DNA of 50,633 nucleotides from a phage: the sequence record NC_102605.1; one strand, 5' to 3'. Both the position numbers and the translations under genes were made by a program. Positions 735 to 49,304 of the stretch are shown in pieces; within the stretch, counting starts at the first letter, position 1; the number at the start of each line of letters is the position of its first letter. Below the pieces are notes generated by a model. It was given only the letters and a program-made list of their open reading frames with translations. It ran no database searches and was not told the origin of the DNA.

Positions 735-756
735 GAATAGCACTTTTTGTTAAAAC
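735..756 (+). promoter_or_regulatory. Dyad-motif cassette (aatagcactttttgttaaaa), upstream of gene 812
   Basis: Motif, then tatgat about 22 bp after TTGTTA, then leader tcatcgaaacgaa, RBS and ATG. Confidence 0.6.
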
Positions 757-8025: not shown

Positions 8026-8397
8026 TTTTAGTGTCCAACCTGCCAGCATACCAGCAATAAACATTAATATACCCATTGCGATTGCCTGAACGTTAAGACC
8101 GTCATTGTTGCGAATTTCTATTCTTTCCGCCGTGATGTTATCGGCCTTAATGCTTGAGGTGCTCACCTGCTTTTTATTTGACGTGTCAACTTGACCAACT
8201 GCCGATTCTTTGAATGTTGTTTCCTGCTTGCTTGATGTATCCTGCTTTGCGGTCACACCAACAGTCTGTTTCACATTCTCCGCTCCAGCCTGTGCCGTTA
8301 TATCAGGCTTGCTACCAATCAGACCAGGTAACACGCTTGAAGCTGAACAACCAGAAAGAGCAATGCACATCATAATAGCCAGTAATTTTCTTTTCAT
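8008..8397 (-). CDS. Unimolecular spanin (lipoprotein signal plus C-terminal TMD)
   Basis: Lipobox LSGC at the N-terminus, C-terminal hydrophobic helix, last gene of the lysis cassette. Confidence 0.65.
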   Translation of the reverse strand: MKRKLLAIMMCIALSGCSASSVLPGLIGSKPDITAQAGAENVKQTVGVTAKQDTSSKQETTFKESAVGQVDTSNKKQVSTSSIKADNITAERIEIRNNDGLNVQAIAMGILMFIAGMLAGWTLKRNKAA

Positions 8398-8897
8398 TTA
8401 TTCAGATCCATTACACAATATTTATATTCAACAGAGCGGCGATTCTTCAATCCCTTTGATTTTTCCTTTTTTCCCGTTTTCGGGTTCCGGTAATATGTCC
8501 AGTTCCAAAGCTCGCCACAACCACCATACAGATCACCATTGTTGATCTTCTTCAACATGGTTGATTTCCTGAATGCACCTGTTCCGGCGTTGAATGTGAA
8601 TGAGTACAAAGCCGCTCGCATAGAAATAGGAATATCAACCTTAACCGCTTTATCAACAGCGTCAGCCGCAACTTTCATATGCTTTGCAAGTAGCGCGTCA
8701 CATTCTCGCCTGGTATATTCCTTTCCTAATATCACATCCTTTCCTGTGATTCCGTGGCATACCGTCCAGATTCCTGCAATATCCTTGTAAGGTTTATACC
8801 TCACGCCCTCAATTTCTTCAATCAAGGGCGATGCCATCATTAAAGCCGCGCCCGTTATGGTAGCGGCTATTGTCTTTTTAATAGCCATTAAATTCAC
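8394..8897 (-). CDS. Endolysin, GH24 lysozyme-like with N-terminal SAR domain
   Basis: N-terminal weakly hydrophobic Gly/Ala-rich segment, then EG...Y.D...G..T lysozyme core. Confidence 0.7.
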   Translation of the reverse strand: MNLMAIKKTIAATITGAALMMASPLIEEIEGVRYKPYKDIAGIWTVCHGITGKDVILGKEYTRRECDALLAKHMKVAADAVDKAVKVDIPISMRAALYSFTFNAGTGAFRKSTMLKKINNGDLYGGCGELWNWTYYRNPKTGKKEKSKGLKNRRSVEYKYCVMDLNK

Positions 8898-10680: not shown

Positions 10681-10825
10681 GACCGTAAGCCTTTTTAAGT
10701 AATTCCATAGCATCATTCCAAAGAATTTGCGCAATAACTTTTGTGTTTTTACGCTCAAGCATAAACAAAGATTCTCTTGCTAACCATTGAGCATCTTTGA
10801 AATATTCAACATTAACAATTTTCAT
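10661..10825 (-). CDS. Hypothetical small protein (~54 aa), not in ORF track
   Basis: ATG after GAGGA RBS and conserved leader tcaacgaaacgaaacgagga, downstream of a cassette. Confidence 0.4.
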   Translation of the reverse strand: MKIVNVEYFKDAQWLARESLFMLERKNTKVIAQILWNDAMELLKKAYGHESNEG

Positions 10826-10883
10826 TTTACAAATCCTCGTTTCGTTTCGTTGAAATGATTATGCCCCACATAAGCGGGGCCTT

Positions 10884-10904
10884 TTTAACAAAAAGTGCTA
10901 TTTA
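10884..10904 (-). promoter_or_regulatory. Dyad-motif cassette (minus orientation)
   Basis: Reverse complement aaatagcactttttgttaaaa; hairpin gcccc/ggggc; cataat; motif TAG is the stop of the upstream gene. Confidence 0.6.
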
Positions 10905-11164
10905 TTAGGATCTGCTAAAAATTCTTTTAGATCTTGATTTATCTTTTCTTCCCACTTGCTCAATACAAGCTCTTTTGTTTCATCAAAACTCATATCAAGC
11001 GCATCTGTGAACATCCACAAATCAGATCCTACTGTTTCAGTTTCATTCGCCTTTTCTATCGCATCGCACACCATAGCGCGATAAAGCAACCATAAACAAC
11101 GTTCAGTTAATTCAACGCGTCGATATTCAACGCCATTTTCAACAATAGTTTCAATCTTTTCCAT
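10898..11164 (-). CDS. Hypothetical acidic protein (88 aa)
   Basis: ORF track; tightly follows the Dam gene. Confidence 0.55.
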   Translation of the reverse strand: MEKIETIVENGVEYRRVELTERCLWLLYRAMVCDAIEKANETETVGSDLWMFTDALDMSFDETKELVLSKWEEKINQDLKEFLADPNK

Positions 11165-11166
11165 CT

Positions 11167-11904
11167 TTAAATACTCCGCGCTTTTGTGCGTTTGTTCTTA
11201 ACAGAAGGGCAAATTTCACTAATTGGCACATAATGAGTTTGTTGTTGCTCACCTTCTTTCAGTTGGCGCATGATAAAAATCACGCTTCCTTTATTGTTTC
11301 CACTAACTTGCTCACCTGTCATGCCAGAAATAAACGACACTCGACCAGTGCGGGAATATTGTTTTCCTTCTTCTTCCCATGTTTCGCCAGTGATCCAGAT
11401 AATTTCCGCCGCGTGTTTTTGTGCATCGCTAAACCATGCGGTTGAGTTGTCAGCCGGAAGTAAAATATCAATCTGGTTTCCGTGTTCCATCTGCTCAATT
11501 GCTTTTAACACAAACGGATCTGGATTGCTGTATGGCGGATTAAGCCAAACATGCTTATTGCTACCCCACCAACGCTTTAAACAGTTTGTTTCTTTGCTGT
11601 AAAACTTATCGCATTTTTTATTATCTTCCGTTGCGGCTGCATCAAGATCATATTTGCCGTAACGTTCGGCAAGATAATCAACAATTTCATCTGGCGTTTC
11701 CCACAAATCGCGCACAACGTCCGGCGTTTTACTTCCTGCATAACGGTTGCCGCTAACCTTCAAAAACGTGTTTTCTCTAACTGGCTGATAATGACCACCT
11801 GAACGCAGCGCAATATCTGAATATCTTCCGTATTGCAGTTCATGAAAATCCATTTCCGGCTCAAAAGTATCAATGGTTGCTTTGTCCTGAAAATCCTTAG
11901 CCAT
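11167..11904 (-). CDS. dam: DNA N6-adenine methyltransferase (phage Dam family)
   Basis: Catalytic NPPY motif (WLNPPYS); size and context typical of phage Dam. Confidence 0.8.
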   Translation of the reverse strand: MAKDFQDKATIDTFEPEMDFHELQYGRYSDIALRSGGHYQPVRENTFLKVSGNRYAGSKTPDVVRDLWETPDEIVDYLAERYGKYDLDAAATEDNKKCDKFYSKETNCLKRWWGSNKHVWLNPPYSNPDPFVLKAIEQMEHGNQIDILLPADNSTAWFSDAQKHAAEIIWITGETWEEEGKQYSRTGRVSFISGMTGEQVSGNNKGSVIFIMRQLKEGEQQQTHYVPISEICPSVKNKRTKARSI

Positions 11905-11905
11905 T

Positions 11906-12184
11906 TTATTTTACCTCGCAAGTTAGAGTGTGCTGATAAACGCCAACTTTAATATCAATGGTGTTATCGTTAACAGTGTAATAAGCCGTCCCAATTGGCG
12001 TAAACAGCTTATATTGATTTTTGCTGATATTATCCATTACAACGCCTGTGCTCGGACCGCTTACAACTTTCATATAGTCGCTTGCAACCTCAAACGCTTC
12101 ATTTCCGCAAATATATGTTTTTGGTTTATCCATGCAACCGACAAGGGCAAGTGATAAAGCAACTACTGATAACATCTTTTTCAT
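11906..12184 (-). CDS. Small outer-membrane lipoprotein, Cor-like superinfection-exclusion candidate (92 aa)
   Basis: Signal peptide with lipobox LVGC after an RBS-supported internal ATG (track 11906..12328); own cassette upstream. Confidence 0.45.
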   Translation of the reverse strand: MKKMLSVVALSLALVGCMDKPKTYICGNEAFEVASDYMKVVSGPSTGVVMDNISKNQYKLFTPIGTAYYTVNDNTIDIKVGVYQHTLTCEVK

Positions 12185-12240
12185 GGTTAATTCTCCGTTT
12201 CGTTCTGATGGGTGCATTATGGCGCATTCCGTTGCGCCTG

Positions 12241-12261
12241 TTTTAACAAAAAGTGCTATTT
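12241..12261 (-). promoter_or_regulatory. Dyad-motif cassette (minus orientation)
   Basis: Reverse complement of the motif; hairpin ggcgca/tgcgcc; cataat; leader catcagaacgaaacggaga. Confidence 0.6.
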
Positions 12262-12663
12262 TGTAGCGTCTGCGATAGCCAATTTTACTTGCTCTACGCC
12301 ATAGCATACGGCGGCAAATCCTCCGCATTCCCTAACGCGGCGTAAGAATTCCTTTTGCTCCTGGCTTACTTTCGTGCCTTTCTTGTTGGCTCGTTTAAGC
12401 TCAATGGAAATGAATGCATATTTGCAGCCAATAAAACCAGTCAGGATTAGAATGTCGCTTACTCCCTTTTTCACACCTGCTTGCTGATCCTTTACTGCTG
12501 TGCCTATTGTTTTCTTCCCTTCGTTTTTAGTGTGCCAAACAAGCCACATTGGAAACTCATATGTTAACCATGAGTAAGAATCAACCTGGTGCGCTTCCTC
12601 TTTTCTGTCATCTGGATCTGATTTGTCGTAATACTCCAGATAATCGCCTTTATCAGTAACCAT
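12256..12663 (-). CDS. VRR-NUC domain nuclease
   Basis: PD-(D/E)XK-type D...ELK core (GVSDILIL...ISIELKR), about 135 aa. Confidence 0.65.
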   Translation of the reverse strand: MVTDKGDYLEYYDKSDPDDRKEEAHQVDSYSWLTYEFPMWLVWHTKNEGKKTIGTAVKDQQAGVKKGVSDILILTGFIGCKYAFISIELKRANKKGTKVSQEQKEFLRRVRECGGFAAVCYGVEQVKLAIADATK

Positions 12664-12665
12664 CT

Positions 12666-14639
12666 TTAAAACTCCTTCTGCGCAATCAAATCTTCTTTCT
12701 TTGTGTTTTTGCGATGGGTAACACGTTTCGGCGGCAATATTTGCCCCGCATAACTCATGATCTTAATTGCATTGCGGCAAGTGATCATGAAGTTTGCAGC
12801 CTGGCGATCTATAACGTGTGTTCTAACCGCCTTTGTCCAAAGCGTTTTGCATATCTTGTGTTCTGATTCAGGGAAATATTTTTCGTATGCCCTGAATTCT
12901 ACGCCGCCACTATCACGCAACGTGTAGCAGAATATTACGCCAGCCTGGTTTTTTGTCAGTGTTACATTAAAATCTAACACGTCACACCAATCATTTTTAC
13001 GGTACATCTTGCCGGATAAGTTATCATTTGGATCTCGCAACTGAACATTACAGCAACGGCATACACGCGCCGCAACGTCATTTTTTGCGCCGCAACCTTT
13101 TACAATAACTTTCTTTGTGCGGTCATCAATCTGATCCTCACATTCCTGGAACGTCCAGAAATGTTCACAACGATTTCCGTTTTCATCCTCATTAATGCAA
13201 CGGCGAGCATAGAATGAATTTTCTGTGCCGCAAATCGGGCAATATTTCGGATCTTTATCCTGTGATTTACGCAACTGGAATTGCGCTTGCTCTAACATCG
13301 GATCGAAATACAAATTACCCATTTCAAACATCGTGCCGGAAAAATCCAAAACAAGGTGATCCGTTTTGTGCATTCCCAATACTTCTTTATGGTAAGTTTT
13401 TAATTGACGCATACCGCGCCCCAAAAGCTGAGTTAATAGCGTCAGGCTTCCGATCTTACGCAAAATAACAGAAGTATCCCACGGCGGAACGTTCACTCCA
13501 GTTGTTAGCGCTTGAACCTGGAATATGTATTTCACGCGCCCTTCATAGGCATCCTCAAGCCATAAGCGCCGCTGTTTCTCTCCAGTTTTTCCGGTGATAA
13601 TGTGATATTTCGTGCCAGGAGGAAGCGCCGCCGCCGCCTCTTTACAATGCCTTTCGTCAGCGCAAGTAACAAGAGCGCACAAGCGGTTTTTCATCACCTC
13701 ATGAACCATCTGCATTATTTTCTGCGTCATGGTTCCTGATTGGTGAATCTTGTCACTCATGGCCTTTAATTGCTTCTGGTCATAATCAGCAACGCCAAAT
13801 TCATGCACTGGCGTAAATTCTGATAAGTCGTAACCCAAATCACCAACATTGCCAAAATAAGTTGGAACAACTGAGCCAAATTTTACCAGGTAATCAGTAT
13901 CAATGTTTGTGATCTGCTCACGCCAAAATCCAGGAATTCTTTTATCTTCGACAAGTATCGGCTCAATCCCGCGATATTCCGATCCGGTCATTCCAAATAT
14001 GCGCAACTGATGCCCGTAAGTCTCAAGGCAACGGCGGCGCATTTCTGCAATGATAATGGTGTATTGTGCGCGGCCTGAACCAATCAGCAACGGATGCCCT
14101 TCAACTGGTTCACCTTTCGGTGTCATCATTTGCTCTATGCTTTCGCCGTTTTCCTCGGCTTCAACAATATCATTCCAGTTGACTTGATGACATTCGTCTA
14201 TACCTAAAACTTGTGGGACGTAATCACCCAACGCTTTATTCAATCCACCAATTACAGTGCCTTCCGATCCGACAACAATCGGGAAATAAGCGCTTTTGGT
14301 ATTCAGGCCAGCGCAATAAACGGAATTCGGAACACCAAAGGCGCTAATCTCTTTTGAATCCTGATCCACAATTTCAGATTGACGCGCCAGAAATAACGCT
14401 TTCAACCCCATTTTACGGCACTGAGCCGCAACCATAGCAAAGATGATTGTTTTACCTGCCGATACCGCCGCTTTAACGAAAAACGGATCAACATACTTGC
14501 TCAAGCGCTTTGCAATTTCAGCGTAAGCAACGCATTGGTATTCATACGGGACAATCTCACCAACCGTGAAACGCTTCTGTATTGCTCTGATCTTTTCCTC
14601 TCCAAGATCTGCAATCTGCTTTTCAATGTTAGGAATCAT
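12666..14639 (-). CDS. DExH-box superfamily-2 DNA helicase with C-terminal Cys-rich zinc-finger region
   Basis: Walker A VSAGKT, DECH box (GIDECHQV), helicase C motifs, C-terminal CxxC clusters. Confidence 0.75.
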   Translation of the reverse strand: MIPNIEKQIADLGEEKIRAIQKRFTVGEIVPYEYQCVAYAEIAKRLSKYVDPFFVKAAVSAGKTIIFAMVAAQCRKMGLKALFLARQSEIVDQDSKEISAFGVPNSVYCAGLNTKSAYFPIVVGSEGTVIGGLNKALGDYVPQVLGIDECHQVNWNDIVEAEENGESIEQMMTPKGEPVEGHPLLIGSGRAQYTIIIAEMRRRCLETYGHQLRIFGMTGSEYRGIEPILVEDKRIPGFWREQITNIDTDYLVKFGSVVPTYFGNVGDLGYDLSEFTPVHEFGVADYDQKQLKAMSDKIHQSGTMTQKIMQMVHEVMKNRLCALVTCADERHCKEAAAALPPGTKYHIITGKTGEKQRRLWLEDAYEGRVKYIFQVQALTTGVNVPPWDTSVILRKIGSLTLLTQLLGRGMRQLKTYHKEVLGMHKTDHLVLDFSGTMFEMGNLYFDPMLEQAQFQLRKSQDKDPKYCPICGTENSFYARRCINEDENGNRCEHFWTFQECEDQIDDRTKKVIVKGCGAKNDVAARVCRCCNVQLRDPNDNLSGKMYRKNDWCDVLDFNVTLTKNQAGVIFCYTLRDSGGVEFRAYEKYFPESEHKICKTLWTKAVRTHVIDRQAANFMITCRNAIKIMSYAGQILPPKRVTHRKNTKKEDLIAQKEF

Positions 14640-14650
14640 TTTTTATCCTT

Positions 14651-14679
14651 TTGACTAAATGCCATTTGCGGCATATCAT
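14651..14679 (+). promoter_or_regulatory. Sigma70-type promoter TTGACT-17-TATCAT for the plus-strand HTH gene
   Basis: Canonical hexamers with 17-bp spacer; overlaps the divergent helicase cassette and its hairpin. Confidence 0.5.
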
Positions 14680-14700
14680 ACACAAACTTAATCAAGTTTT

Positions 14701-14720
14701 TTAGCAAAAAGTGCTATAGG
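14701..14720 (-). promoter_or_regulatory. Dyad-motif cassette (minus orientation) for the helicase gene
   Basis: Reverse complement tatagcactttttgctaaaa; tatgat about 21 bp downstream. Confidence 0.55.
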
Positions 14721-14727
14721 TGAAAAT

Positions 14728-15336
14728 ATGAGCGAAATCAAAATTGCCGCCTCAACTGGCGAAATAGACAAACGCACAATCAATGGTAACAACGGCGTAA
14801 GACGTGGTAAAGATCGCAAACGTCGCGCACCTGTTAGCGGTTATCTTGTATTAAAGGAAGAAGTAAGAGCCGGATTAAAAGCGCGGCTTGATGAAGTTGT
14901 CAACGCTTACGGCGGTTGCGCTGCCCTGGCGCGTGAAATTGGAGTTAACCTTAAAACAGTATGGGGATGGAAAGAGCGCGGCATGATTTCAACTAAAGGC
15001 GCTGAACTGATCCAGAAAGATTACCGCCGCAAAGGTTTTAACGGTTTCCGCGCTTCATATTGCCGTCCAGATATCAAGTTTGATAATAACGGCAAGCCAT
15101 TAGAGAATCGTTGCAGCAACAGAAAGCTGATGCGATTTGTAACCAAAGAGGAAGCGGAAGCAAGAGGATTTGTGCGGCCTTACGATCCGTTACGGTCTAT
15201 GAGTCCAGAAGAACGCGAGAAAGAGAAAGCGCGGCGCAAGGCTGAACGCGACAAGGCGAAAGAAGAACAGCGCAAAGCAAAGGAGGCCAATCAGAAGAAA
15301 CGCGTTGTGATTTCCGTCGATAGCACTGATTGCTAA
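14728..15336 (+). CDS. Cro/YdaS-like HTH DNA-binding protein with Lys/Arg/Glu-rich C-terminal tail (202 aa)
   Basis: HTH signature GGCAALAREIGVNLKTVWGWKERGMIS; AGGTGA RBS. Confidence 0.55.
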   Translation: MSEIKIAASTGEIDKRTINGNNGVRRGKDRKRRAPVSGYLVLKEEVRAGLKARLDEVVNAYGGCAALAREIGVNLKTVWGWKERGMISTKGAELIQKDYRRKGFNGFRASYCRPDIKFDNNGKPLENRCSNRKLMRFVTKEEAEARGFVRPYDPLRSMSPEEREKEKARRKAERDKAKEEQRKAKEANQKKRVVISVDSTDC

Positions 15337-21544: not shown

Positions 21545-21580
21545 CTGCATTATAGGTCTTTGTTGCATGTAGTCAATACC
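21545..21580 (-). promoter_or_regulatory. Sigma70-type promoter TTGACT-16-TATAAT for the recombination operon
   Basis: Plus strand shows agtcaa and attata with a 16-bp spacer; homologous to the promoter at 105-140. Confidence 0.6.
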
Positions 21581-21920
21581 CTTTAAGTGTTCTTTTTGTT
21601 TTACATACGTTTATAGCTAGCACTGACAACAAAATAACATCGTAAGTTTATGATTTTACTGATTGTTGTTTTTGTGTTCCATTGTTAACGCATTTACGCC
21701 GCATACCATATATAAATACATACCATGTGATATATAACCATTAACCAATACAAAACACACAACCACCACAAACCATAGAGAACAACAGAAACAAGAAGAA
21801 TACAAATAGATATATATAATAATAATTAAACTCTAAGTGTATGTATTATATAGATATTTAATTTGTTCTTTTTGTTTTCAAGACGTTTTCAATTTTACGC
21901 CGGATTCAGTTGTGAACATC

Positions 21921-21966
21921 GTGGAACAAAAGAAAACAAAATGCCCCGACCGTTAAGCCAGGGCAT
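21921..21966 (-). terminator. Rho-independent terminator at the end of the late operon (after J)
   Basis: 7-bp stem aatgccc/gggcatt followed on the minus strand by ttgttttcttttgtt. Confidence 0.55.
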
Positions 21967-21981
21967 TGATTTACCTCCTTT

Positions 21982-24900
21982 TTATGCTTTGAATAGCAGA
22001 ACCGTTAAGATCGGCACTGCGTCTGCGTGGTTTAGATCTCCTGAATATGTAAGCGTTGTTGCTTGTCCTGCTGGCAACATAATGTAAGCACTACTACCGC
22101 CATGCATTGCAGTTGCTCTAACAGTTGCCAACCTTCCGCCATATGTTGAATCAACCCAAACAGTACCACCGCCCCATGCGCCGCCTGAGTAGGTGTAACC
22201 ATGCAAACCAACATACGGGATCACAAGGTGTCTGTTGTAGTTGACTGCCGGAATATTTACAGAACCCCAAATTGGCAATACAACAGCCTTTGCAACGTCT
22301 CCCTCAATTTTTTCAGCGTAAACAGTACCCCTAAACCATCCATCTTGCGCGTAAACGCTTCCGGTGAATGAACCATATGATGCGTAAACGCCACCCCTTA
22401 CAGTTACCTGGTTAAATTCAGCATAACCATTCTTATTAATCATCCAGCCAGCCGCGCCGCTACTCCAGTTGTTAGAGTTTATCTGATCTGCAATCTGTGC
22501 ATTACCGATAGAACCATTTTTAACAAGTAAGCTATTGATAAACACCTGATTATTTTCAACAACAAACGGCAATGTAAAGGCTCCGCTTTGAGCATTATTG
22601 ATGATCGCAAATCGTCCAGCATCAAACAGGAATTGTGATTTAACTCCGCTACCATCAGCGACAAGAGAAAGCGCCATACCTGCGCTATATTCCTGCCCGT
22701 TGTACCTGATCCCCAACTTAACGCCGTACATCGCACCAACGCTTGTACCGTTAACCCATGAATCAAGTTTCTGGTTAACCGCTGATTGGGTATCACCAAT
22801 TTGAGTTGATAACGCCCTATCCGCTGACGCTCGCGCTTCCGCTTCATTGGTGATTGCCTGGTTAACATCGGTTATCTGCGCTTTGATATCCTGCTTAACC
22901 CCATCAATTTCGCTCTCAAACGTAGCTGTAAGCTGATCAATCCTCTGGCTAATTGTTTCAGTGCTGTTAGCAATTACCTCTCTCAATTCGCTATTTTGAG
23001 CCGTTAATTTCTCGTCAAATTGCGCACTCATTTGAGTGACCTGCGTTACCCTTGCTTCTGTTTCGTCTGCAATGAGTTTCAGCGATTGCAAGAACTCCGC
23101 TTTACGCTTGCCGTTTTCAACTCGCATACGTCGCACATCTTTATCATTCGCCAATGCGTTTTCAATCACTGATTCCGCTGTGCTGTGGATCTTATCATTG
23201 GCCTTTATTGCGTTTTCCTGTAACCACTTATAGCCATCAGAATTTTCAATATCGACCTTAATATGATCCGTGATAATGCTTGTATCGTCGGAAGCCATGC
23301 CGCGCACAAAATCAGTCCAATCAGAAACGTTACCGATTTTGTCAACTGCCCTTGCCTTGTACCAGACAACATGACCCGCTGGCAGTATTGAATGCCAATA
23401 CTCATATTGCGGGAACGGTATTAGCGTTAAGAGCGTTGCTTCATCAACAATAGGATGACCATCAGAACCGTTCGGCGCTTGATGCAACTCAATATATGCC
23501 GTGTCTCCGCTTCCTTCTGGCATACCCCATTTAACGCGAATTCCGAAAACTTCATTATCAGACGCAGTAAGGTTAATTGGCCTTTCCGGTTCGCCAACCT
23601 TGCCAGTTAATCCGGCGCTTACAATGGCTGACCATCCAGACGCTGAACCATTCGCTGCAACAGATCTAACCCTTACGTGATAGTTTCCGGCGTAAATTCC
23701 TTCAACTTCCGTTTCCTTGTTGGCTGTGCGCGGCGTGTTGTTCCAGTTGCCATTGTCTTTTCTCCACTGCATTTCATAAAGGCTTGCATATTCAACCTTA
23801 TCCCATGAAACGTGCATTGTTTCCACGCTCGAGCCCTGGACAACTCGCGAATAAGATTCGATCTTGACGTTTTGCGGCGCTGGCAAAATGTCAGGCTGCA
23901 CGATTGAAGTCGGACGGTCATCAATGTTTACGCCATAATCAATTTCATCGTATTTGTTAGGATCGTATTCAACAGCCGTTATGTTGTAGGTAAATTCTTC
24001 ATCACCGTCACCCTTAGTGATTCCGGTTACAACATATCGTTGCTGTGCAATATCGGTTCGCTCAATTGCAAAAATGGTATCTGGCTGAACGTCAAAGCCA
24101 AATGTCGTGTTTAGCGTTAGCGTTTTACCGTCATCACTTACACGCGCAATGGTTCGACCAACTGGCTTACCATCCGGCTTATTTACCAGAATGCGATCAC
24201 CTGCTCTTGCGTCAACCTTAAACGGCGTGAACACCTGCAACCCGCTAACCTCCATCACGCGACCTGATAGATTCAGCGTTAGAGCGCTTGACCAAAAGTT
24301 ATCCGATACAACAATCACATCGCCTACGGTTGGGATCATACCTTCCAGACCTGTAGCAAAGTTTACCGTTGTGCTCTTGACGTTGGTTTTTAAAATCCAG
24401 CGTCCACGGCGGTTGGCTTCGCTGCGTCGTGTGCATCCAATCGCAGTAATTGACGTGCTGTTATAGCCAAAACGTAACGCCGCCTCCGTTTCGAAAACTC
24501 CCTCAACATCCTGTTGATACATGTTTTGTTCGTCGTCGAAAGTCACGTTGCATTGCGTGTACATGCTTTTTTCGCTGGCAAACGTGTAAGTGAATTCACC
24601 GTTAACCACGTTGTCATTAGTAAAGATGTATGACGCATCGCGAGGCTTATCGATCACGATTGAAAGGCTCTCACCATTCCAAAAGCTCATGCCACGGAAG
24701 ATTGAACAAATATCACGCACAAGCTGATACGCTTCTACCTGGCTCTGGATCACAACGTCGCAAAGATAGCGCGGCTCTGTTCCGCCTTTACTGTCTGGAA
24801 CCATCTGATCGCAATACTGCGCACATTCGTAAATGCTCCATTTATCAAGCGCGATGCCTAACTCTCTTTGATCGAGTCCGTAACGCTGATTGGTAATCAA

Positions 24901-25758
24901 ATCATACAGAACAAAAGCAGGGTTATTACTCCATGCCTTTTTCCAGGTTCCATCCCATGACCCTGAGTAAGTGCGGGAAATAGGATCATAATTTGACGGA
25001 ACATTAATGATTTTCCATTTTTTCTTAATGCTGATATTCGGCAACGCATTAGGGAATAATTCGCTGTCAAACTCAACATATACTAAACCAGTCAGGGGGT
25101 AACGAAATTTAGCGTCTACAACTTCCGCATAGCTTTGCATTTTAATCAGATCCGTTACCCTTGCTGACGTGCTATCTGTCAGGCGACGGACGCGCAATAA
25201 AACACGATCATTGAAAACAGGTAAATCAATTCGGCGGCTTCTGTCGTAACCGCTCATTGTTTTACCTTCAATTACATCATGCAAAACCTCTTTATATTCA
25301 GCACCATCAACAGCCATATCAACAGCATATTCAACGCGAACACCTGTTAGATCTCCGTTATCTTCCTGAGTAACCCCGCGAGGCATTAAAATTTTAATAC
25401 GGATCGCAGAAAGGTTTTTATTGGTAACAGAAATAATATAAGGCGTTGCGGCTGTCAGATCGCGAGCAACTGTAATTTCGCTGGCTGTATCAGTAAACCC
25501 CTGAATATAATCCTGCGTTTGCGTCCCCGGCCTGAATTCTGCCTTAACATTCTGAAAGTTTAGTGAACCATCCTGATTCATAACCGGAACGTCATCAAAA
25601 TATAAATCTTTCAATGAAAAGTCTGGATCAACTTCACCATCAGAAACGGCTAAAAGAATTCTGATCCTGTTAATTGAAATTAGGTTATCTTCCATTTCAA
25701 CAGGTGTATGAGGCTTTGAAGAACCGCCCTTACTTCCAGTTATCATATTTTTGATCAT
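21982..25758 (-). CDS. Central tail fibre / host-specificity protein (lambda J-like, 1258 aa)
   Basis: Size, position after the I-like gene, conserved J-like N-terminal region and FN3-like repeats. Confidence 0.85.
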   Translation of the reverse strand: MIKNMITGSKGGSSKPHTPVEMEDNLISINRIRILLAVSDGEVDPDFSLKDLYFDDVPVMNQDGSLNFQNVKAEFRPGTQTQDYIQGFTDTASEITVARDLTAATPYIISVTNKNLSAIRIKILMPRGVTQEDNGDLTGVRVEYAVDMAVDGAEYKEVLHDVIEGKTMSGYDRSRRIDLPVFNDRVLLRVRRLTDSTSARVTDLIKMQSYAEVVDAKFRYPLTGLVYVEFDSELFPNALPNISIKKKWKIINVPSNYDPISRTYSGSWDGTWKKAWSNNPAFVLYDLITNQRYGLDQRELGIALDKWSIYECAQYCDQMVPDSKGGTEPRYLCDVVIQSQVEAYQLVRDICSIFRGMSFWNGESLSIVIDKPRDASYIFTNDNVVNGEFTYTFASEKSMYTQCNVTFDDEQNMYQQDVEGVFETEAALRFGYNSTSITAIGCTRRSEANRRGRWILKTNVKSTTVNFATGLEGMIPTVGDVIVVSDNFWSSALTLNLSGRVMEVSGLQVFTPFKVDARAGDRILVNKPDGKPVGRTIARVSDDGKTLTLNTTFGFDVQPDTIFAIERTDIAQQRYVVTGITKGDGDEEFTYNITAVEYDPNKYDEIDYGVNIDDRPTSIVQPDILPAPQNVKIESYSRVVQGSSVETMHVSWDKVEYASLYEMQWRKDNGNWNNTPRTANKETEVEGIYAGNYHVRVRSVAANGSASGWSAIVSAGLTGKVGEPERPINLTASDNEVFGIRVKWGMPEGSGDTAYIELHQAPNGSDGHPIVDEATLLTLIPFPQYEYWHSILPAGHVVWYKARAVDKIGNVSDWTDFVRGMASDDTSIITDHIKVDIENSDGYKWLQENAIKANDKIHSTAESVIENALANDKDVRRMRVENGKRKAEFLQSLKLIADETEARVTQVTQMSAQFDEKLTAQNSELREVIANSTETISQRIDQLTATFESEIDGVKQDIKAQITDVNQAITNEAEARASADRALSTQIGDTQSAVNQKLDSWVNGTSVGAMYGVKLGIRYNGQEYSAGMALSLVADGSGVKSQFLFDAGRFAIINNAQSGAFTLPFVVENNQVFINSLLVKNGSIGNAQIADQINSNNWSSGAAGWMINKNGYAEFNQVTVRGGVYASYGSFTGSVYAQDGWFRGTVYAEKIEGDVAKAVVLPIWGSVNIPAVNYNRHLVIPYVGLHGYTYSGGAWGGGTVWVDSTYGGRLATVRATAMHGGSSAYIMLPAGQATTLTYSGDLNHADAVPILTVLLFKA

Positions 25759-49283: not shown

Positions 49284-49304
49284 TTTTAACAAAAAGTGCT
49301 ATTT
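49284..49304 (-). promoter_or_regulatory. Dyad-motif cassette (minus orientation)
   Basis: Reverse complement aaatagcactttttgttaaaa. Confidence 0.55.

Follow-up and report, generated by a model that had tools for sequence, protein, structure and literature searches.

We examined positions 11167-12663 of a 50,633-nucleotide (nt) phage DNA record (NC_102605.1; the whole stretch is called the window here), which carry genes for a VRR-NUC nuclease, a 92-residue lipoprotein and a Dam methyltransferase. The lipoprotein represents a conserved phage family, predicted to fold as a calycin-type β-barrel and encoded in front of dam. Dam, VRR-NUC and the repeat unit that precedes the lipoprotein gene are already known in T1-like phages and add nothing new. 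An earlier annotation made from the letters of the window (the sequence-only reading) had described the three genes as an accessory cluster containing a Cor-like superinfection-exclusion lipoprotein. The stretch is best explained as part of a conserved early/middle replication-and-modification block of a T1-like Tlsvirus. Taken as a whole, and including a mechanism in which the lipoprotein acts as a receptor-independent periplasmic binder (the narrower version, a peptidoglycan-hydrolase inhibitor, is left aside here), we give this explanation a probability of about 0.45.

A conserved phage lipoprotein family

The mechanical open reading frame (ORF) of the lipoprotein gene covers 11906-12328 (140 residues), and an internal ATG at 12184 gives 92 residues. 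The sequence-only reading had moved the start to this ATG, rightly in our view: a GGAG ribosome-binding site (12193-12196) precedes it and all homologues begin at the same MKK. The upstream extension of the ORF overlaps the VRR-NUC gene and a repeat described below. The 92-residue product (11906-12184, minus strand) starts MKKMLSVVALSLALVG/C, comprising MKK, a hydrophobic core and the lipobox LVGC, with a predicted signal peptide at residues 1-16, the lipid-modified cysteine at position 17 and a mature part of 76 residues. The lipobox had been recognized before and holds up across the family, where 36 of 37 members satisfy a PROSITE-type lipobox rule; Pfam LPAM_1 matches 5 of 14 members. On these features the protein is very likely to be exported. 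At position +2 after the lipid-modified cysteine, every member but two has M, G, S, N or A. The exceptions are the distant members P0036 and P0040 (L006 882-1148), which have Asp.

Database entries in GenBank and UniProt often over-extend the start, giving 103-140 residues in place of 92 and masking the signal peptide. Examples are the entries for TLS (140 residues), Stevie (133 residues), KP36 (109 residues) and Reinasaurus (103 residues, 'putative adhesin'); further over-extended homologues are found at L003 1747-2148, L004 2098-2409 and L013 2950-3279. A few GenBank records label the lipoprotein 'adhesin', possibly because of a resemblance to Neisseria ACP (see below).

The family corresponds to phrog_7420 in PHROGs, where its function is unannotated. 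A tblastn search found the lipoprotein in 218 phage records, 169 of them from Klebsiella phages and the rest including phages of Escherichia, Salmonella and Citrobacter. The genera concerned are Tlsvirus, Henuseptimavirus and Webervirus; approximately 170 Klebsiella weberviruses, KP36 among them, carry a protein with 62-77% identity. A word-indexed search of 5.8 billion proteins returned 30 clusters, almost all of 92 residues; the long contigs that encode them mostly measure ~50 kb, as a phage genome would. When 1.84 billion cluster representatives were searched exhaustively with a profile, only 12 matched at E≤1e-3. Two apparent relatives were rejected. The match to a 3231-residue LapA-type adhesin (P0035, E 6e-12) is the sum of 13 near-identical repeats contributing ~5 bits each, and the match to P0041, made up of nine short stretches (the best of 19 residues), was discounted as likewise repeat-driven.

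Down to 27% identity, the invariant positions are the lipobox G16-C17, Y24-x-C26-G27, Y58 and C89. Pairwise ratios of nonsynonymous to synonymous substitution rates (dN/dS) of 0.19-0.38, with dN = 0 for one pair, indicate purifying selection. The gene's setting is conserved as well: in seven of eight distant members (27-48% identical) it lies directly after the VRR-NUC gene and/or before the Dam gene, and both flanks are visible in four of them. P0034 (L009 6001-6273; 46% identical) comes from another phage type, where its gene stands in a group of small genes that look early, close to Nmad5, PhoH and PNKP-like genes, and adjoins neither VRR-NUC nor Dam; since it sits in a different phage type, the lipoprotein gene appears to move between phage lineages. 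GenBank OR786094.1, 'Streptococcus phage MBBL140' (host S. agalactiae), encodes, within a Tlsvirus-like genome of 49 kb, a lipoprotein with 92% identity. Its host label is probably wrong, or the sample contaminated.

The mature part is predicted to form a calycin-type barrel

An AlphaFold2 (AF2) model built from the family alignment has predicted local distance difference test (pLDDT) values of 93-97 over residues 21-92 and shows eight consecutive β-strands. The mature lipoprotein is thus predicted to be an eight-stranded calycin-type β-barrel. Its structural neighbours include small eight-stranded barrels, among them five periplasmic lysozyme inhibitors: Brucella PliC (4mir, score 6.2), Salmonella PliC (3oe3, 5.9), E. 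coli MliC (2f09, 5.9), Brucella PhiA (7dpy, 5.7) and Neisseria ACP (6gq4, 5.1). Avidins and lipocalins score similarly to the lysozyme inhibitors.

Foldseek returned nothing significant against the PDB, with PhiA (7dpy) as the best compact match at a template-modelling (TM) score of ~0.5. Against viral models its only matches were members of the family and a 'lipoprotein' of phage ESCO41 with 29% identity. A profile search of PDB sequences gave nothing below E 0.7.

The mature lipoprotein lacks homology to Cor

The sequence-only reading had placed the lipoprotein with the Cor-type exclusion proteins, which block phage receptors. The PHROG Cor profile (phrog_1119) does match it, at E 6e-4 over residues 1-37. 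This match disappeared when the signal peptide was removed, even at E≤10, whereas mature T1 Cor, used as a control, still scored 3e-19; we conclude that the match is a signal-peptide effect. The NCBIfam Cor model (NF047972) gave no match at E≤1 (T1 Cor control 3.5e-15). Comparison of mature-only profiles by hhalign gave 0.1-0.5% probability against Cor, for which the profile is shallow. In BLASTP against T1 Cor residues 1-22 alone align, and the mature part found nothing in T1 Cor, Rtp45 or the secreted protein of the Bas10 receptor-binding locus. With no Cor homology in the mature part, the proposed kinship falls, and we hold with high confidence, on sequence comparison, that the lipoprotein is not a member of the Cor family.

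The size of the protein had also been likened to that of Cor, and this part of the comparison stands (92 residues; Cor 75, Rtp45 76). The likeness in position does not. T1 cor and rtp45 adjoin gpJ, and the lipoprotein gene lies in the replication module between VRR-NUC and dam. The locus after gpJ holds receptor-binding and exclusion genes that are matched to the receptor used (BASEL, PMC8594841; 2026 cor-cassette analysis, PMC13164509).

The lipoprotein does not follow the receptor

Two phages with related lipoproteins use different receptors: DanielBernoulli (Bas08) needs TolC and IsaakIselin (Bas10) needs YncD (PMC8594841). The lipoproteins of the two share 88% identity, and that of the window is 96% identical to the Bas08 protein and 84% identical to the Bas10 protein. 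Bas10 has its own three-gene receptor-binding locus after gpJ.

In the window, gpJ (21982-25758; 1258 residues) is separated from a recE-like gene by a gap of 413 bp (21569-21981) that is 90-97% conserved in 47 Tlsvirus records and mostly unannotated in them. The gap has no accepted coding sequence; it contains only a 49-residue, very hydrophobic ORF with a TTG start (21656-21805). In TolC-type Tlsviruses a C-terminal extension of gpJ replaces the separate post-gpJ locus (PMC8594841), and the window fits this type because the gap has no accepted gene.

The last 250 residues of the window gpJ are covered to at least 80% in only 54 records, compared with the 218 that have the lipoprotein, and Klebsiella phages match only the first 120-166 residues. 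The lipoprotein diverges much as its neighbours do. Identity to KP36 is 64% for the lipoprotein, 64% for Dam, 61% for the helicase encoded upstream and 56% for VRR-NUC; the corresponding values for Bas10 are 84%, 80%, 70% and 62%. A blocker matched to the receptor would be expected to change alleles whenever the receptor changes. To judge from these identities the lipoprotein does not, and it behaves like a backbone gene.

VRR-NUC and Dam are backbone genes of a Tlsvirus

A megablast search with positions 10800-12700 gave 131 matches among phage records. The closest over the full query are Escherichia phage Henu4_2 (98.3%) and Salmonella phages GJL01 and YSP2 (98.0-98.1%). These relatives are classified in the genus Tlsvirus (Drexlerviridae, Tempevirinae), T1-like siphoviruses of ~50 kb, and by sequence the window is essentially a whole Tlsvirus genome. 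The VRR-NUC, lipoprotein and Dam genes all lie on the minus strand, where they had been placed before, and their identities are close to certain.

The 135-residue VRR-NUC protein (12256-12663, minus strand) is a PD-(D/E)XK nuclease with 59% identity to T1 ST21. The earlier call of a VRR-NUC nuclease upstream of the lipoprotein is borne out by a match to PF08774 of 33 bits (cutoff 23.8; E 6.7e-8) and by the nuclease motif D70...E88-L-K90, which by inspection is intact and which is conserved in T1 ST21 and Bas10. Its gene starts 2 nt after the stop codon of a Superfamily-2 DNA helicase gene (12666-14639, minus strand; Pfam ResIII and Helicase_C, 63% identity to T1 ST22) that opens the upstream unit, with a repeat copy at 14699-14717 upstream of the helicase gene. 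The order helicase–VRR-NUC is common to T1, Rtp, KP36, Bas10 and metagenomic relatives, and the TLS paper lists VRR-NUC with the replication and recombination genes. As far as gene order and homology tell, VRR-NUC is a member of the helicase unit and a backbone replication/recombination gene, whose product would be a structure-specific nuclease coupled to the helicase.

The Dam protein (11167-11904, minus strand; 245 residues) is an N6-adenine methyltransferase of phage type, 67% identical to T1 Dam. The NPPY motif reported before is present as WLNPPYSNP in the translation, and the assignment agrees with matches to PF05869 (E 6.8e-63; 211.8 bits, cutoff 28.1), TIGR01712 (192.4 bits, cutoff 97.05) and the PADLOC orphan methyltransferase model (E 2.7e-108); in the PADLOC scan nothing else matched. 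Dam is, by these matches, a normal phage Dam and the phage's own predicted GATC-type adenine methylase. GATC sites are 1.8-fold enriched in the window, not avoided (289, compared with 159 ± 12.5 expected from dinucleotide-preserving shuffles). An anti-restriction function of Dam is possible, as are other readings; in the BASEL study methyltransferase genes of Drexlerviridae show no simple link to restriction resistance (PMC8594841).

Downstream of dam an 88-residue protein (10898-11164, minus strand) is the counterpart of T1 ST19 (44% identity; phrog_2676, E 1e-24) and ends the lipoprotein–Dam unit. T1 has the order helicase (ST22)–ST21 (the VRR-NUC homologue)–Dam–ST19, without the lipoprotein. 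Rtp, according to its GenBank annotation, has helicase–VRR-NUC followed by other small genes and has no Dam. Because T1 keeps VRR-NUC and Dam in the same order without the lipoprotein, both count as backbone genes. The description of the stretch as an accessory cluster therefore does not hold, and relative to T1 the 92-residue lipoprotein is, in gene content, the only non-backbone gene and the only add-on.

A genome-wide promoter-like unit precedes the lipoprotein gene

A copy of the TLS/T1 repeat, ATAGCACTTTTTGTTAAAA (12241-12259, minus strand), extends over the final codons and the stop codon of the VRR-NUC gene. It matches the consensus aaATAGCACnnnTTGnTAAAA, taken from PMC11447400, perfectly, is oriented with transcription and lies ~76 nt before a start codon. 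Directly downstream, a stem scan found a dyad with a 6-bp GC-rich stem, GGCGCAACGGAATGCGCC (12221-12238), which runs on into the -10-like hexamer CATAAT (12216-12221; the whole feature 12216-12238, minus strand). No T-run was seen after the stem on the coding strand, so the dyad is not a canonical terminator in the direction of the genes.

The 19-mer pattern ATAGCACnnnTTGnTAAAA occurs 21 times in the window, compared with 0.29 expected. In 17 of the 21 copies a -10-like hexamer (CATAAT, TATAAT or TATAGT) follows exactly 19 nt after the repeat, and the start codon lies 55-59 nt past the repeat end. Good copies are confined to the non-structural regions at 1-20.5 kb and 44-49.3 kb. Examples of the 21 copies are 737-755 (plus strand), 12241-12259 (minus strand) and 49284-49302 (minus strand). 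The next copy after the one before the lipoprotein gene, at 10883-10901, opens the following unit. A 21-nt direct repeat is already known in TLS, T1 and Rtp, and the authors leave its function open (PMC11447400).

The VRR-NUC genes of T1, Rtp, KP36 and Bas10 all carry the repeat at their extreme end. In T1 the repeat unit directly precedes dam. In the window the lipoprotein gene stands between the repeat unit and dam, with 1 nt from the lipoprotein stop to the Dam start. Because the same unit fronts dam in T1, the cassette is a conserved promoter-like unit of the Dam unit and not the lipoprotein's own. The dyad that had been assigned to the lipoprotein as its own cassette is thus present, but it is part of a unit that recurs throughout the genome.

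The repeat is an imperfect palindrome, TAGCA-N5-TG(C/T)TA, and a -35 consensus is absent. If the hexamer is a true -10 element, the centre of the palindrome lies near -42, the geometry of a class II activator site. This geometry and the restriction of good copies to non-structural regions suggest that the repeats are operator-plus-promoter units for a dimeric phage regulator. A gene for a helix-turn-helix (HTH)-type regulator lies at 14728-15336 (plus strand); it has a weak Pfam YdaS match, and in T1, Rtp and KP36 the corresponding genes carry a transcriptional-regulator annotation. The HTH gene has the region's best sigma-70 consensus promoter, TTGACT-17-TATCAT (14651-14679), and is divergent from the helicase repeat unit. 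We infer that the HTH protein is a candidate binder of the repeat.

Proposed mechanism and alternatives

The lipoprotein is probably a receptor-independent periplasmic binder. It would be transcribed together with dam from the repeat unit, as part of a non-structural early/middle programme, exported by Sec, lipidated on Cys17 and cleaved by signal peptidase II. With Met and not Asp as residue +2, it would be carried by the Lol pathway to the outer membrane and anchored in the inner leaflet. The 76-residue eight-stranded barrel would then be displayed in the periplasm, probably stapled by a C26-C89 disulfide. Its target would most likely be a conserved enterobacterial envelope component and not the phage's own receptor, because the protein is 84-88% identical across receptor types and diverges at the rate of the replication enzymes.

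The more specific proposal, to which we commit as a guess, is that the lipoprotein is a periplasmic, protein-binding inhibitor of the MliC/PliC kind that acts on a wall-degrading enzyme and so would protect or condition the envelope of the infected cell. The guess is drawn by analogy, since among proteins of solved structure it is MliC, PliC, ACP and PhiA that resemble it in size, compartment and lipid anchor; that the lipoprotein is specifically a peptidoglycan-hydrolase inhibitor is nonetheless unlikely.

Several observations weigh against the binder and its inhibitor version. Asp in position +2 is an inner-membrane retention signal in E. coli, and its presence in two distant members means that outer-membrane sorting is not universal in the family. 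Early expression is deduced solely from the kind of promoter-like unit and its position, and the lipoprotein gene is not discussed in the paper that re-annotated TLS. The tape-measure protein has no recognizable wall-degrading domain. Pfam MliC (PF09864) gave no match at E≤10 to any of 14 members and hhalign against the MliC profile gave 0.5% probability; homology to MliC was rejected on these results, and similarity at the level of the fold alone remains. The conserved loop motifs by which MliC and PliC enter the lysozyme active site, SxSGAxY and (S/T)KG, are visible in the E. coli MliC sequence. The E. coli MliC stretches SASGARY and WSKGDEA have no counterpart among the invariant residues of the family, and neither a Ser-x-Ser-Gly-Ala nor an (S/T)KG motif is conserved in it.

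T4 Imm and Spackle act after adsorption. They are precedents (Spackle: PMC7677548) for an alternative in which the lipoprotein would exclude phages at DNA entry, blocking a conserved periplasmic or membrane step after adsorption of T1-like siphoviruses, for example channel formation by ejected tail proteins, so that relatives would be excluded whatever porin they bind. The distribution of the lipoprotein, conserved across receptor types and host genera, and the place of its gene in a repeat-driven non-structural unit agree with such a block. The PADLOC and PHROG scans, however, found no homology to known exclusion proteins, and we regard the alternative as doubtful.

The gene is also on the same strand as, and ~3 kb upstream of, a cassette of holin, GH24 signal-anchor-release (SAR) endolysin (8394-8897) and unimolecular spanin (u-spanin). 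The lipoprotein might accordingly be a lysis or envelope-conditioning accessory that tunes when or how completely the cell lyses, for example through restraint of the SAR endolysin or the spanin, or that alters envelope-stress or capsule signalling of the host in favour of the infection. Its predicted anchor lies in the compartment where endolysin and spanin act, and its fold class includes lysozyme inhibitors. We consider this quite unlikely: the gene is outside the lysis cassette, and T1, with the same type of holin, SAR-endolysin and u-spanin cassette (PMC11447400), lacks the lipoprotein. A paralogue of the periplasmic domain of the u-spanin (an 'anti-spanin') was rejected, as the signal peptide alone aligns with the u-spanin.

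Exclusion of the Cor/Llp type, in which the lipoprotein would bind the phage's terminal receptor (probably TolC) from the periplasm and close it to incoming phages and progeny, is very unlikely. A small phage lipoprotein of the outer membrane, comparable in size to Cor and Rtp45, would suit this role. The receptor-binding/exclusion locus that usually follows gpJ is missing from TolC-type Tlsviruses (PMC8594841), and with no accepted gene in the 413-bp gap of the window an exclusion gene elsewhere is conceivable. Against it stand the unrelated mature sequence, the absence of Cor and Llp from the structural neighbours listed, and the position of the gene in the replication module and not beside gpJ. 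The YncD-dependent Bas10 carries an 84-88% identical protein in addition to its own post-gpJ locus, the Klebsiella weberviruses carry the lipoprotein together with a different gpJ C-terminus, and divergence at the backbone rate is unlike that of a receptor-matched allele.

That VRR-NUC, Dam and the lipoprotein form one joint anti-defence or accessory system is scarcely credible, even though seven of the eight distant relatives keep their placement on one or both flanks: a syntenic backbone passed on vertically accounts for the order, T1 has VRR-NUC and Dam adjacent without the lipoprotein and Rtp has VRR-NUC without Dam, a promoter-like unit parts VRR-NUC (in the helicase unit) from the next gene, a periplasmic lipoprotein cannot contact cytoplasmic enzymes, and PADLOC reports an orphan methyltransferase alone.

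Over 200 sequenced phages, with hosts in E. coli, Salmonella, Citrobacter and Klebsiella, carry the lipoprotein conserved under purifying selection; many of these phages are under development for therapy. It is annotated 'hypothetical' almost everywhere and is unrelated to the exclusion lipoproteins known so far. Should it exclude other phages or change the envelope, the behaviour of these phages in cocktails would be affected, and a receptor-independent mechanism would join a field in which receptor blockers dominate. If it has no measurable effect, it is one more conserved small phage gene.

Comparison with known systems

The unit in front of the lipoprotein gene is the 21-nt repeat of T1 and TLS: the copy is perfect, is oriented and spaced from the start codon like the other copies, and shows no difference from a genome-wide element that is not gene-specific.

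Cor (T1, phi80, N15 and HK022), Llp (T5) and Rtp45 are also small outer-membrane lipoproteins of virulent or temperate siphoviruses of enterobacteria, with precursors of ~75-92 residues. They share with the lipoprotein a lipobox signal peptide, a feature common to all bacterial lipoproteins, and plausibly production before lysis. Unlike them, the lipoprotein has no homology in the mature part, is not encoded beside gpJ and has a distribution independent of receptor type.

MliC, PliC, PhiA and ACP are compact eight-stranded antiparallel β-barrels of ~75-90 residues in the periplasm, as the lipoprotein is predicted to be. E. coli MliC has a lipoprotein signal peptide (...LLSGC), as does the phage protein, and in both a Tyr-x-Cys closes strand 1 and a Cys follows the final strand. 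In contrast to MliC and PliC, the lipoprotein has no detectable sequence or profile similarity to them and no MliC loop motifs, and avidins and lipocalins score equally.

T4 Spackle differs in being soluble and not lipid-anchored and in having a different, helical fold, and it is not among the structural neighbours listed for the lipoprotein. The likeness is a functional analogy: Spackle is a small, early, exported periplasmic phage protein that acts independently of the receptor, as an inhibitor of the gp5 tail lysozyme (PMC7677548). In function the closest analogue of the lipoprotein would thus be Spackle, and not Cor or Llp. It is a long shot that the family forms a new class of envelope effector, a lipid-anchored periplasmic inhibitor of MliC fold that is found in more than 200 Tlsvirus, Henuseptimavirus and Webervirus phages, neutralizes a conserved enterobacterial or phage wall-acting protein and thereby confers receptor-independent exclusion or envelope protection. 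If it did, siphoviruses, including many Klebsiella therapy candidates, would possess a convergent counterpart of T4 Spackle.

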